From Candidatus Latescibacterota bacterium (GTDB taxonomy: Bacteria > Latescibacterota > UBA2968 > GCA-2709665), in assembly GCA_963662665.2 (NCBI GenBank), contig CAXXJS010000054.1:1-23464 (forward strand): DNA of 23,464 nucleotides, read 5' to 3'. Below the pieces are notes generated by a model that searched no databases, was not told the origin of the DNA, and saw nothing but the letters and a program-made list of their open reading frames with translations. A program made the position numbers and the translations under genes. Position 1 is the first letter of the stretch; each line of letters opens with the position of its first letter. This document shows, one piece after another, positions 1 through 19,488 of this stretch.

Positions 1-247
1 TCAGCCCGGAACCCGTAGCGGCTCGGATGAAGACAGCCACGGTGTCGCGGACCTGCTCCGCCGTGAGTCCACTCGTCCCATCTCCTCCGGTCGCGGTGGA
101 TGAGATGGTGAGGGTGTTGGCGGCATCGTCGTGGACGATGGTTATATTCGTGCCTTCGCGGATGAAGGCAGCGATGGTGTCTCGGACCTGTTCGGCTGTC
201 AGACCGCCATCATTTCCCCCCCGTCTACCGGCAGGAATCAAAGGCAT
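1..247 (-). CDS. Virion/tail-fibre-like repeat protein, N-terminal part (runs off window start)
   Basis: Not in the ORF track. My translation from ATG 247 (GGAG RBS upstream) is MPLIPAGRRGGNDGGLTAEQVRDTIAAFIREGTNITIVHDDAANTLTISSTATGGDGTSGLTAEQVRDTVAVFIRAATGSGL..., open to the edge, with the repeat GLTAEQVRDT(I/V)AxFIR. Confidence 0.7.
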   Translation of the reverse strand, partial: MPLIPAGRRGGNDGGLTAEQVRDTIAAFIREGTNITIVHDDAANTLTISSTATGGDGTSGLTAEQVRDTVAVFIRAATGSGL

Positions 248-3994: not shown

Positions 3995-4023
3995 TTGACA
4001 GGGATGTATACAAGGAATATACT
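3995..4023 (+). promoter_or_regulatory. Sigma70 promoter driving the Ro60/ncRNA cassette
   Basis: TTGACA (3995-4000), 17-bp spacer, TATACT (4018-4023). Confidence 0.8.
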
Positions 4024-4031
4024 TGCTCGCG

Positions 4032-4322
4032 GTGAAAGAATTACTTGGAAATACAGAGATCAAAGCGGTCTTGTCGATGTCGGTTGTATCGACTCACAAG
4101 GCCATTACTGGCCTTCTGATCGGGTACTTCTACTGGCACGAGGATACGCTCGCAGTCGTATCGATGATCGCGCTGTACGGGCTCTACACGATCCCGTCTC
4201 TGGTCTTTGGGTTGGTTTCGACCGATAAAATCAAAACGTTGTGGTGGCAGATCATGCTGAGTGTGATCAACGTCATCTGCAATGTTTGGTTGGTCGGTCG
4301 CATCATGGAGCACTGGCAATGA
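4032..4322 (+). CDS. Small multi-pass membrane protein
   Basis: About three hydrophobic segments. The track's TTG at 4023 overlaps the -10 box, so the near-leaderless GTG at 4032 is preferred. Confidence 0.6.
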   Translation: MKELLGNTEIKAVLSMSVVSTHKAITGLLIGYFYWHEDTLAVVSMIALYGLYTIPSLVFGLVSTDKIKTLWWQIMLSVINVICNVWLVGRIMEHWQ

Positions 4323-4350
4323 ATTCGTAGCAAGAGAAACAATTTGGAAG

Positions 4351-4457
4351 CGCCCGTAGCGTAGATCGCGGTTACTTCGGTTTGACAGGTTCGATTCCTG
4401 TACCGGCAAGGCTCATAGAGCCGGTCGGTATGCGCCGTGGTCGAAAAATCTCGGGCG
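4351..4457 (+). ncRNA. Y RNA-like unit 1 (T-arm plus closed acceptor-like stem as cargo)
   Basis: Outer stem CGCCCG/CGGGCG; TAGCGTAG-N8-TACTTC; inner stem GATCGCGGT/GCCGTGGTC; T arm ACAGG-TTCGATT-CCTGT followed by ACCGGC...GCCGGT. Confidence 0.75.
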
Positions 4458-4464
4458 TCCGATT

Positions 4465-4602
4465 TTGCTCGGTAGCGTAGAAATCGGGTACTTCGCTTTT
4501 GGTGCGAGAGATCCGGGTTCGAATCCCGGCGGGCCGCTGAGCGGTCTGTGGTGTAACGGTTATCACGCTTACGTTCCCCGATTCCGACTGTACTCCGAGC
4601 AA
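4465..4602 (+). ncRNA. Y RNA-like unit 2 (circularly permuted tRNA-Gln(UUG)-like cargo; YrlA-like)
   Basis: Outer stem TTGCTCGG/CCGAGCAA; inner stem AATCGGG/CCCGATT; anticodon arm, T arm, loop-closed acceptor stem and D arm in permuted order. Confidence 0.8.
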
Positions 4603-4608
4603 TCTTTA

Positions 4609-4685
4609 CCGGTCGTAGCGTAGACAGCGGTTACTTCTCATTTTGTAAATGAACCTCCGTACCGTTGCCGTTTGATCTCGACCGG
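4609..4685 (+). ncRNA. Y RNA-like unit 3 (anticodon-like hairpin cargo)
   Basis: Outer stem CCGGTCG/CGACCGG; inner stem CAGCGGT/ACCGTTG; hairpin TCAT-TTTGTAA-ATGA. Confidence 0.75.
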
Positions 4686-4692
4686 ATCATGA

Positions 4693-4760
4693 GGCGGAGT
4701 GGAATTCGTCAGGCTTGGGAGCTCAGCGAATCGCCGGTTCAAGCCAGCACTCCGCCACCG
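4693..4760 (+). ncRNA. Degenerate tRNA-like element
   Basis: GGCGGAGT/ACTCCGCC stem followed by ACCG; imperfect T-arm GCCGG-TTCAAG-CCAGC; one internal hairpin ATTCG...CGAAT; no D arm. Confidence 0.35.
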
Positions 4761-4765
4761 CATGA

Positions 4766-4794
4766 GAGTTCCCCGCATTGGTGGGGATAGACCG
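4766..4794 (+). CRISPR. Solitary type I-E CRISPR-like repeat (not an array)
   Basis: GAGTTCCCCGCATTGGTGGGGATAGACCG is 29 nt and 23/29 identical to the E. coli I-E repeat GAGTTCCCCGCGCCAGCGGGGATAAACCG as recalled; the hairpin is retained. Confidence 0.7.
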
Positions 4795-4797
4795 ATT

Positions 4798-4907
4798 GCC
4801 CCATAGCGTAGGAGACAGATACTTCTTGGGCACATTGTTCCAAGCCTGTCACGCCGGGTTGATTCCGATACGTGGCAGACGCAACTGTTTCCGGTTGTTC
4901 TTGGGGC
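4798..4907 (+). ncRNA. Y RNA-like unit 4 (two-hairpin cargo)
   Basis: Outer stem GCCCCA/TGGGGC; inner stem GGAGACAG/CTGTTTCC; hairpins CTTGGG...TCCAAG and CTGTCACG...CGTGGCAG. Confidence 0.75.
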
Positions 4908-4914
4908 TTGTTTT

Positions 4915-4986
4915 TGGCCGTAGCGTAGGGTTCGGTTACTTCTTAAGGCTAATTAGATTTGTACCGAATCCGCTTATTCTCGGCCA
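4915..4986 (+). ncRNA. Y RNA-like unit 5 (minimal; short AU-rich loop)
   Basis: Outer stem TGGCCG/CGGCCA; inner stem GGGTTCGGT/ACCGAATCC; same invariant motifs. Confidence 0.75.
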
Positions 4987-4998
4987 TCATCGTGGAAG

Positions 4999-5098
4999 GG
5001 CCGGTAGCGTAGACAACCGATACTTCGTACATTGGCGGAAAAGTCCCTTTTGGGCACTGCCGAATTGTTGCTCTCGGTTTTCGATTTGACCTCCGGCC
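4999..5098 (+). ncRNA. Y RNA-like unit 6 (long hairpin cargo)
   Basis: Outer stem GGCCGG/CCGGCC; inner stem AACCGA/TCGGTT; cargo TTGGCGG-AAAA-GTCC...GGGC-A-CTGCCGA. Confidence 0.72.
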
Positions 5099-5153
5099 TC
5101 CCTACCTTGACGGCCCTGAATCCGCTACATCACACCTAACCGGAGGAGGGGAA

Positions 5154-6503
5154 ATGAAACTCAACAGACCACCGAAACCGACCGAATTCACGCATCAGGG
5201 AGCACCGGCCGCCCGGCTCAACATCTTCCAGAAGTTGCGCCGATCCGTGCTGGCCTGCCTGTTGTGGGAGAAGGAATTCTACGAAGACGGGATCTCGATC
5301 GCGGATCAGATCACCACTCTTGCCAAGGCACTGAAAGACCCGGTGGGTCTCTCGATGCTGGCCTGTCAGGCTCGATCCGACTACAAACTACGGCACGTCC
5401 CGCTGTTGCTCTGCTCGATCCTCGCGGAAGTCGGGAAGGGTTCCAGTGTGGTCGCGGACACCATTGCTCACTGCATCCATCGGGCTGATGAGCCGGCTGA
5501 GTTCTTGGCAATCCACGCGAACCGCAACGGTGTCAAGGCGAGCGAGATCAAGCCGATCATCACGAACCAGATGCGGAAAGGGCTGGCCCGGGCATTTCAT
5601 CGGTTCGATGCCTATCAGTTGGCGAAATACGATCGCCCGGGGGAGATTCGGCTTCGGGATGTCCTGTTTCTGTGCCACCCGAAACCGGCCAGTCCTGAGC
5701 AGGAAGACCTGTGGAAGCGCCTGATCGACGGCACGTTGGAACCGCCCGACACGTGGGAAGTCGCGCTGTCCGGGGGAGCCGACAAGAAAGAGGCGTTCAC
5801 CCGACTGCTCAAGGAAGAGAATCTCGGCTATCTCGCGTTGCTTCGGAACCTGCGGAACATGGTCAATGCCGGAGTCAAGTCGGATCTGATCCGGAAGTCC
5901 ATCCGCGCCCGCAAGGGAGCGCAGTGGGTGTTGCCGTTTCGGTATGTCGCGGCCGCTCGGGCCTGTCCGCAAATGGAGCCGGATTTGGATGCCGCGCTCT
6001 TGGCGTCGCTCGAATACGGACCACAGACCATGCCCGGACACGGCAAGACGTTTCTGCTGATCGACGTGTCCGGTTCCATGGATTCCCGATTGTCGGCGAA
6101 GTCGGACCTGACCCGGATGGATGCCGCTGCGACTCTGGCGTCGATCTGGCCTGGAGCGGATCGAGTCTTCACCTTCTCACAATCGATCAAGGAAGTTCCG
6201 CCTCGAAAGGGAATGGCCGGAGTCGATGCCATCCGCAATTCCCAACTCCATGGCGGAACCTATCTCGGGGATGCGATCCGACATCTGAACAAGGAAATGG
6301 AGCCGGAGGATCGGTTGATCGTTCTCACTGACGAACAGTCAGCCGACCGAGTGCCGGATCCCCGGGCGAAGACGGCCTACATGGTGAATGTCGCGTCCTA
6401 CCAGCGCGGGATCGGTTCTGGCCGGTGGAACCGGGTTGACGGGTTTTCCGAGCACATCATCCGGTATATCCGGGAGTTGGAGATGGCCACGAAAATCAGT
6501 TGA
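5154..6503 (+). CDS. rsr: Ro60/TROVE-domain RNA-binding protein with C-terminal vWA domain (Rsr orthologue)
   Basis: TROVE motifs LRRSVLACLLWEKEFYEDG, RADEPAEFLA, FDAYQLAKY, LRDVLFLCHPKP, TWEVALS, ALLRNLRN, LPFRY; vWA MIDAS DVSGSM, GGT, LTDEQ; strong GGAGGAGG RBS. Confidence 0.93.
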   Translation: MKLNRPPKPTEFTHQGAPAARLNIFQKLRRSVLACLLWEKEFYEDGISIADQITTLAKALKDPVGLSMLACQARSDYKLRHVPLLLCSILAEVGKGSSVVADTIAHCIHRADEPAEFLAIHANRNGVKASEIKPIITNQMRKGLARAFHRFDAYQLAKYDRPGEIRLRDVLFLCHPKPASPEQEDLWKRLIDGTLEPPDTWEVALSGGADKKEAFTRLLKEENLGYLALLRNLRNMVNAGVKSDLIRKSIRARKGAQWVLPFRYVAAARACPQMEPDLDAALLASLEYGPQTMPGHGKTFLLIDVSGSMDSRLSAKSDLTRMDAAATLASIWPGADRVFTFSQSIKEVPPRKGMAGVDAIRNSQLHGGTYLGDAIRHLNKEMEPEDRLIVLTDEQSADRVPDPRAKTAYMVNVASYQRGIGSGRWNRVDGFSEHIIRYIRELEMATKIS

Positions 6504-6528
6504 CAGACTTGTATACTTCTTGTATACT
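6500..6528 (+). promoter_or_regulatory. Sigma70 promoter overlapping the rsr stop codon
   Basis: TTGACA (6500-6505), 17-bp spacer, TATACT (6523-6528); tandem CTTGTATACTT twice (6508-6529). Confidence 0.65.
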
Positions 6529-6555: not shown

Positions 6556-6594
6556 AGCGGTCATCGGGGGCGTTCCCCGGTGGCCGCTTTCTTC
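6556..6594 (+). terminator. Intrinsic terminator-like hairpin
   Basis: 14-bp stem AGCGGTCATCGGGG/CCCCGGTGGCCGCT; its G-U pairs work on the plus-strand RNA; followed by TTCTTC; lies between convergent genes. Confidence 0.65.
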
Positions 6595-12486: not shown

Positions 12487-13216
12487 CGGATTCCTCGGCT
12501 TCGATTTGATCCAGTCGTTCGGCAGCGAGTTGTGCCAGCATACCGAACGCGATTGCGGAATTCACGACGTTCCACTTGTCTTTGATGTCTCCGATCGTGT
12601 TGAAAACCGCATTGAAGTCTTCGTACCGAGCCAAAAACGCATCCGGCGGTTTCTTGCGGTTGACATGCCGCCGCTTTTTGCTCACCCGAGCATCGATCCG
12701 CTCCAAGACTTGTCGGAATTCATCCAGTTCGGAGTGGAGAAAGAAAATGTTGACTTCACGGTACTCCGGCAGCCCGACGGTCAGCGCGGGAACGTCCAGT
12801 CCATCGAATTCCTTAATGTCGTCATCCGTGATTCCAGAGTAGAGTTTTTCATCCATGTCCAGCGTTTCGTAGAGTTCCGCCAATACGGATGGGTCGTCTT
12901 GACCGGAAATCGCATTGTGGCTCAGTTGGATCGCGACCTTCCGATCCTCGGTCAAATCGGACGTGATGATATGGGCGTCGATCGTTTTGACTCCAGCCGC
13001 GATAGCGGCCTTGGTCCGGTGATGCCCAGACAGGATCTCGGGACGGCTCTGACCGGCGGGCCAATGGGCCAAGACGGAGCTCGTAAGTGCTCCGTCCCGC
13101 TTCACATTTTCCACCAAACGGGTGAACTGGTCGCCCGTCATGTAGCGGGCGTTTTTCTCCCGTGGGAGCAGGATTTTAGGGTCGATCTTGTCAATCCGGT
13201 AGTCGATTTTTTCCAC
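12479..13216 (-). CDS. ParB/Sulfiredoxin N-terminal domain protein
   Basis: NARYM...LVENVKRDG...ILSGHHRTKAA...HNAISG. Confidence 0.85.
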   Translation of the reverse strand: MEKIDYRIDKIDPKILLPREKNARYMTGDQFTRLVENVKRDGALTSSVLAHWPAGQSRPEILSGHHRTKAAIAAGVKTIDAHIITSDLTEDRKVAIQLSHNAISGQDDPSVLAELYETLDMDEKLYSGITDDDIKEFDGLDVPALTVGLPEYREVNIFFLHSELDEFRQVLERIDARVSKKRRHVNRKKPPDAFLARYEDFNAVFNTIGDIKDKWNVVNSAIAFGMLAQLAAERLDQIEAEESDG

Positions 13217-14516
13217 GTAGATACTTTCGATACCACCAATTGAAAACCTGTTGCCCCGATTCCTCCCGAACCGGGGCCGAATACGTGATGATGTTTTTGC
13301 CCGTATCTTCGTCCTGTTTCCGCACCTTCAAATCGTAGATCCCACGGTACTTCATCGACATCGGGTGCCGGCTGATGGCGGTCGTGGTGATCGTTTCGAT
13401 CCGATGGAGCATCCGCGCTTCAACCATCGAAATCACTTCCCGGCAGATCGACAGCCGCGTCACGAATTTCGACAATTTGAACCCACCCGGGAGCGTCACG
13501 TCGCTCATCAAGTAGATCGAGTTCCAAGCGTATCGATTCCAGTTGTAGACCAAGCATCCGACCAGCATTTCGTCGATCAGAATGACGAAATTCAGGTTCC
13601 CGCGCCGCTGAACGATATCGGCGGACAGGTACACGTCCCGCACGTAGTCGGTGACTTCGTGGGGAACTTCACCGATTCTCACGGTCGATCGACGGTTGAC
13701 CTTGTAGAGGTCGATCGGGGAATACGCAATCGGAGATGTGTTCCGCGTGAAGCGCCGGACGCTCCCCCGAGCGGTTCGGGCGTAGCCGAAGTGCGGAACA
13801 TTCTTCATGGTCCTGTGCTCGATCACCGGCTTGAAGCCATCGACTACCTGGTCGGAATGCAAGCAGTACGGGACTCCGGATCGATCCACTTTCGTCAGCA
13901 CGTCATGAAATCTCTCGGGGTCATAGACCAGATATGGCGGCGGGGACCACTTCGTGTTTTGATCGATGAAGCGGAATTGCGCTTCGTAGCCGCCCTTGTA
14001 GAACGGCGGGAAGGCGACGATCCCGGAACCGGACTTGATGGCTCGGTCAATGTGGATGAGCCAATCGCCGGCGAAGTACCCGGTGAGCAGACCAGGCTCC
14101 ATCGACTTCGAGAGCTTTCCGACTCCGGCTTCAAGGTATTGCTCGAACCGCTGTTCGTAATATCGAAAATGCCTCTGATAGTAAGGGTGCTTCGACTTGA
14201 AGCGGGACATTTCGAGCGCCACCAATAGCGCGGCGACTCGGTTGATGTAAGGCTCACCGTGCAGGATGGCTTCGATGAACCCCAGCCTCTCGGTGAACTC
14301 GAATTCCAGTTCAGCGCCGGTGAACAGACGCCCGAGCGCCGTGCTGTAGAGGCTCACGTCATTGCTGTAGATTTTAAGATCCGGGAACCGCTTCCGCAGG
14401 ACGCGATCAACCTTGAAGGTTCCCGAGCAGCAAACGTGGACCCGCTCCCAATTCTCGAAATCCACCACGGCCAGCATTTGCTGGACAAACGCATTTGGAA
14501 CGGTGCCGAGAAACAT
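13191..14516 (-). CDS. Putative DNA-modification enzyme (adenine-methyltransferase-like N-terminus plus a second domain)
   Basis: SAM-binding-like CCSGTF...SNDVSLYS; catalytic-like FPPFYKGGY; translationally linked to the ParB gene. Confidence 0.55.
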   Translation of the reverse strand: MFLGTVPNAFVQQMLAVVDFENWERVHVCCSGTFKVDRVLRKRFPDLKIYSNDVSLYSTALGRLFTGAELEFEFTERLGFIEAILHGEPYINRVAALLVALEMSRFKSKHPYYQRHFRYYEQRFEQYLEAGVGKLSKSMEPGLLTGYFAGDWLIHIDRAIKSGSGIVAFPPFYKGGYEAQFRFIDQNTKWSPPPYLVYDPERFHDVLTKVDRSGVPYCLHSDQVVDGFKPVIEHRTMKNVPHFGYARTARGSVRRFTRNTSPIAYSPIDLYKVNRRSTVRIGEVPHEVTDYVRDVYLSADIVQRRGNLNFVILIDEMLVGCLVYNWNRYAWNSIYLMSDVTLPGGFKLSKFVTRLSICREVISMVEARMLHRIETITTTAISRHPMSMKYRGIYDLKVRKQDEDTGKNIITYSAPVREESGQQVFNWWYRKYLRGKNRLPD

Positions 14517-16254: not shown

Positions 16255-16754
16255 TCCAAGCCAGTTCGGGCAACGCAGTCTTTTCGAAATGCGGAACCTA
16301 CCGCTACCGGCTTGATCGCAAGTGGATGTTCGGCTCCGGCCGAGTTGTTTGGGTATTGCTCAATCCATCAACTGCGGACGCCAAGAAAAATGATCCGACG
16401 ATTCGCCGGTGCATCCGGTTTTCGTTCGACTGGGGCTACCAGAAATTGACGATCCTGAATCTGTTCGCCTACCGGTCTACGGATCCGAAAGCGATCCGGC
16501 AGCAAGACGATCCGATCGGGCCGTCCAATCACCGAATCTCCCGGGAAGCGCTGATGACAGCGGACTTGGTTGTCTGCGGATGGGGCAATGACGGCTTCTA
16601 CCGGAAGCAGGACCGTCGGTTTCTGGATCTGATCCAAAAGTGCGGGAAGACCCCGATGATCCTCCAGTGGAATGCCAGTTGCAAAGCCCCTCGGCACCCG
16701 CTCTACATCCCTGCCGCCGCGAATCCGATCCTCTACCCTGTCGAGATTCTATGA
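16251..16754 (+). CDS. DUF1643 family protein
   Basis: YRYRLDRKW, LNPSTAD...DPTIRRC, NLFAYRSTDP, GWG and PRHPLY motifs. Confidence 0.88.
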   Translation: MIQASSGNAVFSKCGTYRYRLDRKWMFGSGRVVWVLLNPSTADAKKNDPTIRRCIRFSFDWGYQKLTILNLFAYRSTDPKAIRQQDDPIGPSNHRISREALMTADLVVCGWGNDGFYRKQDRRFLDLIQKCGKTPMILQWNASCKAPRHPLYIPAAANPILYPVEIL

Positions 16755-18226
16755 AAAGCCGCATCCTGATCGGCGCGGCCCATGAGCGCTTGAAAGAGCT
16801 TCCAAGCGAGTCTGTGAATTGCGTCGTCACTTCCCCTCCTTACTGGGGGCTTCGAGCGTACCGGGGCGGCCATGGGATGATCGGCCTTGAGCAGAACTTC
16901 GATGATCATCTGGTCAACCTTCTGGCCGTCTTCAAAGAGGTCTGGCGGGTGCTCCGGCCCGATGGAACCCTGTGGCTCAACTACGGCGATGCGTATGCCG
17001 GCAGCGGAAAGGGGGCCGGCGGGCAAGGAACCACGTCCACGATGCAACTCTCCAACACCGGAAGTTACCACAAGACCTACCGAATGAATCTGTGCGGGTT
17101 CAAGCCGAAGGATTTGATGCTGTTGCCGGCGAGAGTCGCCATGGCGCTCCAATCCGAAGGATGGTGGCTCCGTTCCGAGATCGTCTGGCACAAGCCGAAT
17201 CCAATGCCGGAGTCGGCCACCGACCGGCCAACGTCGTCACATGAGAAAATCTTCCTGTTTTCCAAGTCTGGAAAAACTCTGTATTGGACGCATCCGGTCC
17301 ATGCTGGCACGAGGGACAAACCGCCCGCCGACCACATCTTCATCAACAAGTTCACGGGCAATGTGACTCGGATCCAGCCGGAAAACTGGAAAGCCAACAA
17401 CGAGTGGAAGCGCAAGAATCTGTGGCGCGGACACACCTATTTCTACGACGGTTTGGCGGTCCGGACCCCGCTTGCCGACGAAACCAAGCGGCAGTCTTTC
17501 GACACGATGGATTTCAAGCGTCGGGACACCTACAAGATGCCCGACGGCTGGGAAACCGGACCCGGATCCCATGGAAAGGTCCATTCGAAGGGGCGGTCAA
17601 AGGGAGTTCGTGGACGGAGCACCTACGGGCGGCATACGCTCGGGGATGAGCTTCCTCCCCACGAACGACGAACTGACAAGCAGCGCGGCCATTCTAGGCG
17701 GCACGAAGGATTCAATGATCGCTGGGACTCCATGAGCAAAGAGGAGCAGCAAGCCGGCGGCGCTAATCTACGCAATGTCTGGCGAGTCGCAACCCATCCG
17801 TACAAGGGCGCTCACTTCGCCACATTTCCGTCGACCCTGATCACGCCGTGCATCCTCGCTGGATCGAGTGAAAGGGGTGTTTGCGCGGAATGCGGAGCGC
17901 CTTGGGATCGGGAGATCATACGGGAATTCCTGCAGACCGGACCCAACCGATTCAATCTCGATCCATCGAGCGAATGGGATGGGTTCCCGCGTGGCACCAC
18001 GGCGCAAACGGCCGGGGGCTGGAATCCCACCTGCGGATGCAAGGCGGAATTCGTGCCGTCTACGGTGCTTGATCCGTTCGCGGGATCAGGGACCGTCGGG
18101 CTGGTTTCTCAGCGTCTCGGACGGGATTCCGTATTGATCGAGTTGAGCCGCGAATATGCGGAGATGTCCGCTGCTCGGATCACGGCCGATATGCCGCTTT
18201 TCGCCGAAGTGGAGGTAATCGAATGA
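16751..18226 (+). CDS. DNA N4-cytosine/N6-adenine methyltransferase (beta class) with large insertions
   Basis: TSPPY (motif IV) precedes DPFAGSGT (motif I); WHKPNPMPES, HFATFP; ATG 16751 coupled to the upstream stop. Confidence 0.9.
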   Translation: MKSRILIGAAHERLKELPSESVNCVVTSPPYWGLRAYRGGHGMIGLEQNFDDHLVNLLAVFKEVWRVLRPDGTLWLNYGDAYAGSGKGAGGQGTTSTMQLSNTGSYHKTYRMNLCGFKPKDLMLLPARVAMALQSEGWWLRSEIVWHKPNPMPESATDRPTSSHEKIFLFSKSGKTLYWTHPVHAGTRDKPPADHIFINKFTGNVTRIQPENWKANNEWKRKNLWRGHTYFYDGLAVRTPLADETKRQSFDTMDFKRRDTYKMPDGWETGPGSHGKVHSKGRSKGVRGRSTYGRHTLGDELPPHERRTDKQRGHSRRHEGFNDRWDSMSKEEQQAGGANLRNVWRVATHPYKGAHFATFPSTLITPCILAGSSERGVCAECGAPWDREIIREFLQTGPNRFNLDPSSEWDGFPRGTTAQTAGGWNPTCGCKAEFVPSTVLDPFAGSGTVGLVSQRLGRDSVLIELSREYAEMSAARITADMPLFAEVEVIE

Positions 18227-19488
18227 TCGCCTACTACAATGACAACGACCGGTATATCTGCGATTGGCTCCAAAACCTGATGGACGCCGGCGAGATCATG
18301 CCCGGAAAGATCGATGATCGGAGTGTCGATGATGTCGACCCAGAAAGCCTTTTTCGATTTACCAGATGCCATTTCTTCGCCGGAATCGCCGGCTGGGACC
18401 TCGCGCTCCGCTTCTCTGGATGGCCCATCGAAAGACCGGTCTGGACCGGATCATGTCCCTGTCAGCCGCTTTCGAGCGCGGGCAAGAGAAAAGGTGCTGC
18501 CGACGAAAGACACCTCTGGCCCGCTTTTCATCGGCTCATCGAAATCTGCCGACCTCCAACGATCTTTGGCGAACAGGTTGCGTCGAATATTGGACGTGAA
18601 TGGCTCTCCGCTGTTCGACTTGATCTTGAGCAGTTGGGATATGCCGTCGGGGGTGCCGATCTTCCGGCTGCGAGCGTCGGGAATGCCAAAATCCTTACTG
18701 CGAGCGGCAAGGAGTCCATTATTTCGGATGCGATCGGAGGCGCTCCGCACATCCGGCAAAGACTGTGGTGGGTGGCGCACTCCGACCACTACGGACGGAG
18801 ATCGAGGAGCGGCCAAGAAAACTCACGATCGATCCCGGATCGGACTCACAACGATGGCAAGTTGGGCGACTCCGAGATCGGTGGAATCCGGCCATGCGAC
18901 GGGAAGTCCCGACAGAGCGCAGAAGCACCTGAGTCGGCTGGAAGATCAAGTGTTTCTGGCGGAAGCCCACTGGCCTACTCCGATGGCCGGGACTCCGAAG
19001 ACGAAAGAATACAACGAAGCGGGCAACACGGATTCGAGCCGGAAAACGGTCGAACTGGCGTCATGGCCGACCCCGAAATCCCGGAGGCCAGGACAGCCAT
19101 CGACTTACGCGAGAGGCAACCCGAATCTTGCGATGGCCGCGAGCTGGGCGACTCCCACCGGTCGCGACCACAAAGACAGATCGAGTACGTTGGAAAACAC
19201 GCCGATCAACTCGCTCCTTGGGCGTCAAGTCTCCTTATCCATTGCTCCGACGGAAAACTCCGTCCGGTTCCAGTTGAACCCCGCTTTTTCCCGTTGGCTC
19301 CAAGGGTATCCGCAGATTTGGGATCTGACCGCCCCGGTGAAGCAAGCCCGTTCCGCGTCATAACCGATCCCGAAACCGGACGATCCATCGGCCAGAAGCC
19401 GTGGCGGATCGGGATGCTCCGAGCCTATGGGAACTCCATCGTGCCTCAGACCGGTGCCCTGTTCATCCTGTCATTTCTCGATTTGTAG
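18223..19488 (+). CDS. DNA cytosine-C5 methyltransferase (alpha-type polypeptide)
   Basis: FFAGIAG (I), GSCPCQ (IV), EQV (VI), HIRQR (VIII), LRAYGNSIV (X). Confidence 0.88.
   Translation: MIAYYNDNDRYICDWLQNLMDAGEIMPGKIDDRSVDDVDPESLFRFTRCHFFAGIAGWDLALRFSGWPIERPVWTGSCPCQPLSSAGKRKGAADERHLWPAFHRLIEICRPPTIFGEQVASNIGREWLSAVRLDLEQLGYAVGGADLPAASVGNAKILTASGKESIISDAIGGAPHIRQRLWWVAHSDHYGRRSRSGQENSRSIPDRTHNDGKLGDSEIGGIRPCDGKSRQSAEAPESAGRSSVSGGSPLAYSDGRDSEDERIQRSGQHGFEPENGRTGVMADPEIPEARTAIDLRERQPESCDGRELGDSHRSRPQRQIEYVGKHADQLAPWASSLLIHCSDGKLRPVPVEPRFFPLAPRVSADLGSDRPGEASPFRVITDPETGRSIGQKPWRIGMLRAYGNSIVPQTGALFILSFLDL
18314..19363 (+). CDS. Nested alternative-frame ORF, candidate beta polypeptide of the C5 MTase (start uncertain)
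   Basis: Open for 349 codons inside the MTase gene; five W(A/P/R)TP repeats; ends QLNPAFSRWLQGYP (motif IX-like). Confidence 0.55.
   Translation: MIGVSMMSTQKAFFDLPDAISSPESPAGTSRSASLDGPSKDRSGPDHVPVSRFRARAREKVLPTKDTSGPLFIGSSKSADLQRSLANRLRRILDVNGSPLFDLILSSWDMPSGVPIFRLRASGMPKSLLRAARSPLFRMRSEALRTSGKDCGGWRTPTTTDGDRGAAKKTHDRSRIGLTTMASWATPRSVESGHATGSPDRAQKHLSRLEDQVFLAEAHWPTPMAGTPKTKEYNEAGNTDSSRKTVELASWPTPKSRRPGQPSTYARGNPNLAMAASWATPTGRDHKDRSSTLENTPINSLLGRQVSLSIAPTENSVRFQLNPAFSRWLQGYPQIWDLTAPVKQARSAS

Follow-up and report, generated by a model that had tools for sequence, protein, structure and literature searches.

A genuine, intact and solitary type I-E CRISPR repeat is present at positions 4766-4794 (+ strand; GAGTTCCCCGCATTGGTGGGGATAGACCG) of a contig whose gene content identifies it as a tailed-phage fragment. 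The element has the sequence and the fold of a type I-E repeat, occurs as a single copy on its phage carrier and lies in sense orientation within the cassette of a Ro60 orthologue gene. By analogy with known RNA anti-CRISPRs, it is tentatively read as a solitary repeat unit (SRU) acting as an RNA decoy against type I-E immunity, at a confidence that falls a little short of even.

Sequence and copy number of the repeat

The window, i.e. the whole stretch of DNA that was analysed (23,464 nucleotides), comprises the whole of contig C54. As E. coli reference, the CRISPR-I array of K-12 (NC_000913.3) was used, in which the consensus repeat is present in 10 copies. The 29-mer at 4766-4794 is identical to this consensus at 23/29 positions, and to the variant repeats of K-12 at 25, 24 and 22 of 29. 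Differences from the consensus are confined to the four loop bases, one C-to-T exchange, by which a G-C pair becomes G-U, and one A-to-G exchange in the 8-nt handle. Within the window, a single copy was detected when up to 3 mismatches were allowed (shuffled sequences: 0/100), and the 29-mer is likewise single in the 4,860,532-base assembly. No second or degenerate copy was found at CRISPR spacing around the repeat, where the next-best local matches (offsets +28 and -47) reached 16/29. Cas families were recognised neither among 29 ORFs of the window scanned with Pfam nor among 23 scanned with PHROGs. The original prediction had described one 29-nt type I-E repeat with 23/29 identities to E. 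coli and the differences listed above, no second copy and no cas genes in the window; all of this was borne out by the comparison with NC_000913.3, by the copy number in the window and the 4.86-Mb assembly, and by the Pfam and PHROGs scans. Functional CRISPR arrays have at least two regularly spaced repeats with spacers, usually beside cas genes, and the sequence at 4766-4794 has neither regularly spaced neighbours nor adjacent cas genes.

A chance origin of the 29-mer in the 23-kb window is very unlikely, because its core pattern (CCCCGC, four bases, GYGGGGATAGACC) was not found in 14 same-genus genomes when up to 1 mismatch was allowed, and 52 same-order genomes yielded one match, itself with one mismatch. 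The likeness to type I-E repeats also reaches past the hairpin, into GAGTT on the 5' side and ATAGACCG on the 3' side. Exact or near-exact copies were absent from the viral contigs (0) and the metagenome contigs (0) that were searched. With Rfam, no family reached threshold in the window, and a sub-threshold scan of 4000-5300 was without a match overlapping 4766-4794. Contigs of two other runs (X2, X3) span the repeat with identical sequence and are uninformative on its evolution.

Fold and predicted processing

The repeat folds into a hairpin (4770-4787, + strand) of 7 bp (U-A, four C-G, G-U, C-G) with the 4-nt loop AUUG. This hairpin was obtained for the repeat alone and was present in the MFE folds of 4680-4910 and of the 829-nt RNA region 4325-5153, with pair probabilities of 0.85-0.999 in context. 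According to PMC5965381, the 3' handle derived from type I-E repeats consists of a stem of 7 bp and a loop of 4 nt, and the crRNA carries an 8-nt 5' handle after cleavage. The geometry of this family, i.e. a length of 28-29 nt, 7-bp stem, 4-nt loop and 8-nt 3' part, is that of the repeat. By analogy with the type I-E crRNA described in the same source, AUAGACCG at 4787-4794 (+) is the predicted 8-nt crRNA-type 5' handle, and Cas6e would be expected to cut between 4786 and 4787.

Comparison with natural type I-E repeats

Natural repeats were collected by pattern scans with one genome per species. The ATAGACC handle of the repeat differs from that of E. coli and is common in natural type I-E arrays, whose repeats with this handle are 19-24/29 identical to the solitary copy. 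Arrays with such repeats and a 61-nt period were found in MAGs labelled Dehalococcoidia/Chloroflexota, Caldilineaceae, Alpha- and Gammaproteobacteria, and others. One pattern scan returned 7 loci, 5 of them with neighbouring repeats; a further scan returned 41 loci, among which 23 had at least 3 copies at ~61-nt spacing and 9 had a single copy within 1 kb. In the binned genome's class, the ATAGACC handle occurs in type I-E arrays of six genomes (7-78 copies), and it was found at two loci of its order.

At positions conserved to at least 90% among 31 distinct consensus repeats (49 arrays), the solitary repeat agrees in 15/15 cases, an agreement that is partly built in, as the harvesting pattern itself fixes several of these 15 positions. 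Where the repeat departs from its nearest natural counterparts, the changes affect the loop and the 5' flank or keep the pairing as G-U, and the G-U variant GTGGGG is itself the consensus of at least one natural array (L046). A natural array with the ATTG loop was not found in 185,579 species genomes (0) or in the viral collection (0). Natural arrays of the type GGTTCCCCCGCACxCGCGGGGATAGACC share with the repeat the CCCCGC/GYGGGG stem, a 4-nt loop and the ATAGACC handle, and differ from it in that they run with a 61-nt period beside cas genes, whereas a single copy on a phage is found here.

The scans also returned type I-E repeats in other settings. At one locus of an alphaproteobacterial MAG (L092, ~1001-1026), a complete I-E-type repeat forms the spacer between repeats of another CRISPR array, whose repeat ends in ...GCGCGGATTGAAAC. 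Judged by this arrangement, an I-E repeat apparently served as the source of a spacer for another CRISPR system, and it may have come from an element with a lone repeat. In two MAGs labelled Bryobacterales and Terriglobia (L080 and L091), single I-E repeats lie directly 3' of an ORF end, with homologous flanks conserved between both; these may be one-repeat arrays or regulatory sites.

Phage contig and rsr cassette

The assignment of the contig to a tailed phage is based on genes recognised with Pfam and PHROGs for a major head protein, a protease, a MuF-like head morphogenesis protein, head closure and adaptor proteins, a Mu-type portal and the large and small terminase. Further genes encode a ParB-like protein, three proteins of DNA methyltransferase type and HNH endonucleases; a DUF1643 gene is found on the contig as well. 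The DNA-modification genes are located at 13191-14516 (DAM-like domain fused to a GNAT-like domain), 16640-18226 (N6/N4 methylase) and 18223-19488 (C5 methylase), and on this set of predicted domains DNA modification is a major investment of the phage. In contigs of three runs (X3, X4, X5), position 136 is linked back to position 1 via AACTG; for window 1-136, this may reflect a short duplication at the terminus or a join made in assembly where the contig begins.

The cassette with the repeat sits between the protease and MuF genes, on the strand opposite to both. In the order of the + strand, it comprises a promoter-like site (3995-4023; TTGACA-17-TATACT, 11 of 12 positions, consensus match only), a small ORF for a hydrophobic protein of 99 aa without family (4023-4322), an RNA array (4345-5100), rsr (5154-6503) and a terminator-like hairpin at its end (6556-6588). 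The repeat is encoded in the same sense. The rsr product is a Ro60 orthologue with TROVE (1.7e-10) and VWA (VWA_2, 5e-06) domains and was assigned to phrog_850, RNA-binding protein, at 7.7e-38. The cassette, including the repeat, is likely transcribed as a single RNA. The nearest promoter-like site is the one ending at 4023, 743 nt upstream of the repeat, and a sigma-70 consensus scan found none within 250 nt upstream. A single ORF overlaps the repeat, namely a frame of 103 aa at 4778-5089 within the RNA array.

The cassette is bracketed by two promoter-like sites whose hexamers are the same (TTGACA-17-TATACT; 3995-4023 and 6500-6528). Both contain GTATAC boxes, which make up an inverted repeat of 17 nt from one site to the other, possibly a common operator.

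RNA array around the repeat

Six units with a shared 27-nt 5' block (GTAGCGTAG...TACTTC) and two other structured modules make up the RNA array. Directly 5' of the repeat, folds predict a stem-loop module (4687-4765, +; 5-bp + 9-bp terminal helix). On its 3' side, unit 4 (4798-4907, +) starts 3 nt after the repeat, is predicted to fold into a tRNA-like multibranch RNA closed by GCCCCA/UGGGGC and carries the 27-nt unit block at 4801-4827. One unit (4465-4537) was called tRNA-Gln by ARAGORN.

According to PMC4201824, tRNA-like RNA arrays before rsr are ordinary at Ro60 loci, phages included. The array shares its context, a series of tRNA-like small RNAs immediately before the gene of a Ro60 orthologue, with YrlA-type Y RNA arrays as described there (Chen et al. 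2014; RF02553). With regard to a possible membership of the Y RNAs, the array adjoins rsr, has one ARAGORN tRNA-like unit and five units with relatives upstream of rsr elsewhere, and gives an RF02553 score well below threshold. In sub-threshold Rfam scans, the array scored 20.4 bits for tRNA and only 15.7 bits for YrlA (RF02553), against a threshold of 69, and it differs from YrlA also in that the Ro60-binding motif GNCGAAN0-1G is absent. No similarity between the array and the rest of the assembly was found. A full-text literature search returned no work joining YrlA/Rsr with a CRISPR repeat in this sense.

For comparison, 120 loci encoding Rsr relatives, all 40-60% identical, were used; 28 were taken from viral contigs, 12 from genome contigs and the remainder from metagenome contigs (best 80 of 91). 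The presence of the repeat in related rsr cassettes, which the original prediction had raised as a point to look up, was not observed: type I-E-like repeats were found in 0/120 loci (609,301 bases, both strands; metagenome part best 80 of 91), and the best scores were three 21/28 matches without a hairpin. As far as these sequences indicate, the repeat is not a feature of rsr cassettes as such. Since many of the 120 loci have relatives of units 1, 2, 3, 5 and 6 before their rsr gene, and the stretch 4642-4911 (stem-loop, repeat and unit 4) is the only part of the array without any, the repeat is placed in a lineage-specific insert within a kind of array that is conserved in other respects. Unit 4 is the most divergent array unit, and 4642-4911 may have arrived as one block. 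Close relatives of the phage were not found (Rsr at most 60%, MuF at most 44% identical). With closest relatives of only 40-60% identity in Rsr and at most 44% in MuF, a comparison with empty sites or of PAM junctions was impossible.

Host assignment

The genome into which the contig was binned is 92% complete with 5.4% contamination. Neither Cas6e nor a type I-E array was found in it. Its only clear CRISPR locus is an array of 37-nt repeats on contig C5 beside a type I-B operon with Cas6b, Cas8b-type TM1802, Cas7, Cas5, Cas3, Cas1 and Cas4. At ~18.1-37 kb of this contig, transposase/IS genes (rve, DDE_Tnp_1, IstB) interrupt the array, leaving it in three blocks. The 37-nt type I-B repeat is common to 6/14 same-genus genomes, and a mimic of it was not found in the window (best 21/37).

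In the phylum, Cas6e was detected in 22/168 genomes. None of the 14 same-genus and none of the 21 same-family genomes carries it; it is present in 6/31 genomes of a sister family in the same order and in 16/76 genomes of a family of the same class. In these Cas6e-bearing same-order and same-class genomes, array repeats share 19-22 of 29 positions with the solitary copy, and the ATAGACC handle is present in several of them.

The contig is only weakly tied to its bin, and the host assignment is doubtful, because the contig is a tetranucleotide outlier in the bin (0.0193 vs 0.0075 +/- 0.0022; 1/88 equal-sized windows as far) and its nearest terminase relatives in the phylum belong to another, I-E-bearing family (f4; identity up to 53%). 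A search of 52 genomes from the family and order of the bin itself gave no terminase relative. Spacers were of no further help in these comparisons: among the matches listed, the longest exact match to the phage was 14 nt for the bin's 33 own type I-B spacers, and it was 14 nt for 122 spacers of same-genus and same-family arrays. Across 255 other loci including arrays (1.32 Mb), no spacer-like match of at least 22 nt to the phage was found beyond the repeat and the RNA-unit blocks.

Interpretation of the repeat

According to PMC10651486, 2,103 viral SRUs have been catalogued, and nine candidates inhibited CRISPR, including candidates tested against type I-E. The source also states that 83% of SRUs match the CRISPR subtype of their host and that the tested candidates were selected with a predicted promoter at most 250 bp upstream. 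RacrIF1 is a substrate of Cas6f, which binds and cuts it, and it gives rise to an aberrant Cas6f-Cas7f particle (PMC10651486). A lone phage-borne repeat is a kind of element already known, because five other viral contigs carry a lone ATAGACC-family repeat, none of them beside tRNA. For the decoy reading, the following course is envisaged. Transcription of the repeat in crRNA sense would start from the promoter-like site at 3995 and take in small ORF, array and rsr up to the terminator-like hairpin at 6556-6588. If the true host has a type I-E system, its Cas6e would bind to the 7-bp/4-nt hairpin, cleave the RNA behind G4786 and remain attached to this hairpin, and Cas5e and Cas7e could load on the downstream RNA led by AUAGACCG. 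After the RacrIF1 model, the RNA would tie up Cascade subunits in non-productive particles.

Like the SRU/Racr elements described in the available text of Camara-Wilpert et al. 2023 (PMC10651486), i.e. RacrIF1, RacrIC1 and the tested type I-E candidates, the repeat is single, on a phage and without cas genes, and it is intergenic and in sense, with the Cas6-binding hairpin and the handle kept. As in that catalogue, it is virus-encoded, matches a known repeat and has no other (partial) repeats near. It differs in that it lies 743 nt inside a long structured RNA array and not just behind a promoter of its own (250 bp at most for the tested candidates), that no acr gene was recognised nearby with Pfam or PHROGs, that the binned host has type I-B and not type I-E, and that its activity is only a candidate one. 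As to a host of the same subtype, the binned genome is of type I-B without Cas6e, its link to the contig is weak, and type I-E occurs in the same order and class. The decoy reading is favoured by an intact repeat that folds in its context, a phage carrier, the sense orientation together with promoter-like and terminator-like sites, Cas6e and ATAGACC arrays in the lineage, terminase relatives in the I-E-bearing family f4 and the SRU precedent. Against it stand the host mismatch, the promoter distance of 743 nt, the lack of a recognised acr gene, the 0/120 conservation, the lack of a spacer match and of an array with the ATTG loop, and the RNA upstream of the repeat, which is a stable stem-loop where RacrIF1 has a Cas7-coated upstream stretch. 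The Racr-type reading of the original prediction is therefore reasonable to the extent that a genuine solitary I-E phage repeat is present in sense in a likely single transcript, with hairpin and handle intact; it is weakened by a type I-B binned genome without Cas6e or I-E array, by the lack of a promoter-like site within 250 nt and by the absence of the repeat from 120 rsr loci. The RNA-based anti-defence island also suggested there is a conjecture; tRNA-like RNAs before rsr are common at Ro60 loci (PMC4201824).

Several other explanations were weighed against the decoy. The repeat could be a passive relic without a current role, picked up once by recombination from a host type I-E array or another mobile element. 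Such an origin would agree with its being unique to this phage (0/120 rsr loci; metagenome part best 80 of 91), with its position in the sole array stretch without relatives (4642-4911), where it would sit in a non-essential spacer, with a binned host that lacks type I-E and with the lack of a nearby promoter-like site. Lone I-E repeats do persist as chromosomal debris, e.g. beside a 185-aa Cas3 HD fragment (L259). A relic is nevertheless judged unlikely, with perhaps a quarter of the weight: the conserved positions, the full hairpin and the handle are all intact, what distinguishes the repeat from its closest natural counterparts is limited to the loop, the 5' flank and a pairing-preserving G-U, and the orientation is sense. 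An improbable but conceivable alternative is a one-repeat guide or processing unit, in which a Cas6e cut would give unit 4 a crRNA-type 5' handle for array maturation or as a Cascade guide; in a variant, the phage sequence after the repeat would be loaded into Cascade, e.g. against related phages without the insert. The end of the repeat only 3 nt before unit 4 fits this, and E. coli type I-E is reported to work with unit-sized crRNA made without Cas6e (PMC4499155). The would-be guide, however, is a tightly folded RNA, no second or degenerate repeat lies at CRISPR spacing (best 16/29), and the repeat is present at one array junction only. Relatives of five of the six units occur in rsr loci without any repeat, so Cas6e is not needed for the maturation of these five, and with a site at a single junction the earlier proposal that Cas6e matures the polycistronic RNA is unparsimonious.

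Cracr-type regulation is a highly unlikely explanation. Here, the repeat and a spacer-like stretch would form a crRNA mimic that directs Cascade to a host cas promoter or a CreT-type toxin gene. Phage type I-E Cracr arrays do exist (Liu et al., bioRxiv 10.1101/2024.10.29.618823), and as described in the available text they resemble the present case in being phage-borne and I-E repeat-like; such RNAs would be substrates of Cas6e and competitors for Cas proteins. On one gut phage scaffold, two I-E-like hairpins are separated by 50 nt, and the second of them is 25/29 identical to the repeat and has the same loop. In Cracr RNAs as described in that source, however, the spacer-like part has a repeat-like sequence on either side and shows a match to a cas or toxin promoter, whereas a single repeat is present here and no second repeat-like sequence was found near 4766-4794. 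Compared with 18 type I-E cas loci of the phylum (253,416 bases), the 33 nt after the handle reached at best 18 effective matches, no better than a shuffled null of 18-21, a result that is not decisive, as the true host locus may lie outside this set. That the repeat is just a chance G+C-rich hairpin of a structured array, with no CRISPR link, is scarcely credible. The array is full of hairpins, and Rfam gave no family at threshold and nothing sub-threshold over 4766-4794; yet the matches extend outside the stem (GAGTT on the 5' side, ATAGACCG on the 3' side), the sequence is the sole one of its kind in 4.86 Mb with shuffles at 0/100, and the core was found 0 times in 14 same-genus and once, mismatched, in 52 same-order genomes.

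Further lone or paired repeats were recorded during these searches. Lone pattern matches occurred in four genomes of the phylum, two inside ORFs, which look like chance matches, one beside the Cas3 HD fragment and one intergenic. A lone intergenic I-E repeat between two ORFs without family is located at position 4675 of contig C77 of a genome of the same class (G165; L260), and its core pattern deviates by one base from that of an array repeat in another genome. A blastn search with a 33-mer against a phage database gave 4 records, one of them informative. The gut phage scaffold named above (MT837197.1, unverified; L258) carries its two I-E-like hairpins at 1452-1530, the second with an ATTG loop, in a layout like that of Cracr mini-arrays.

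A wider reading would take the repeat as a functional graft that links the phage Ro60/small-RNA machinery to the host CRISPR machinery via chimeric RNAs cut by Cas6e from 4642-4911, and very little probability is attached to it. One product would be a structured RNA ending in a Cas6e-bound hairpin, the other a tRNA-like RNA with a crRNA 5' handle. These chimeric RNAs might plug Cascade with an unusable folded 'guide', or tether Cas6e/Cascade to a Ro60-exoribonuclease complex, as Y RNAs tether Ro60 to PNPase.

Biological meaning

Two features set the solitary repeat apart as far as the sequence comparisons go: its location inside a tRNA-like RNA operon before the Ro60 gene of a phage, and its repeat type, which suggests that the host is not the binned genome. 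The repeat could thus serve as a host-range clue, indicating a host with a type I-E system that uses ATAGACC-handle repeats, unlike the binned genome. If the candidate decoy is active, RNA anti-CRISPRs would extend to phages of poorly known environmental bacteria, and the repeat mimic would ride in a tRNA-like/Y-RNA operon and not behind a promoter of its own. Searches for solitary repeats that demand a nearby promoter would miss such a case.
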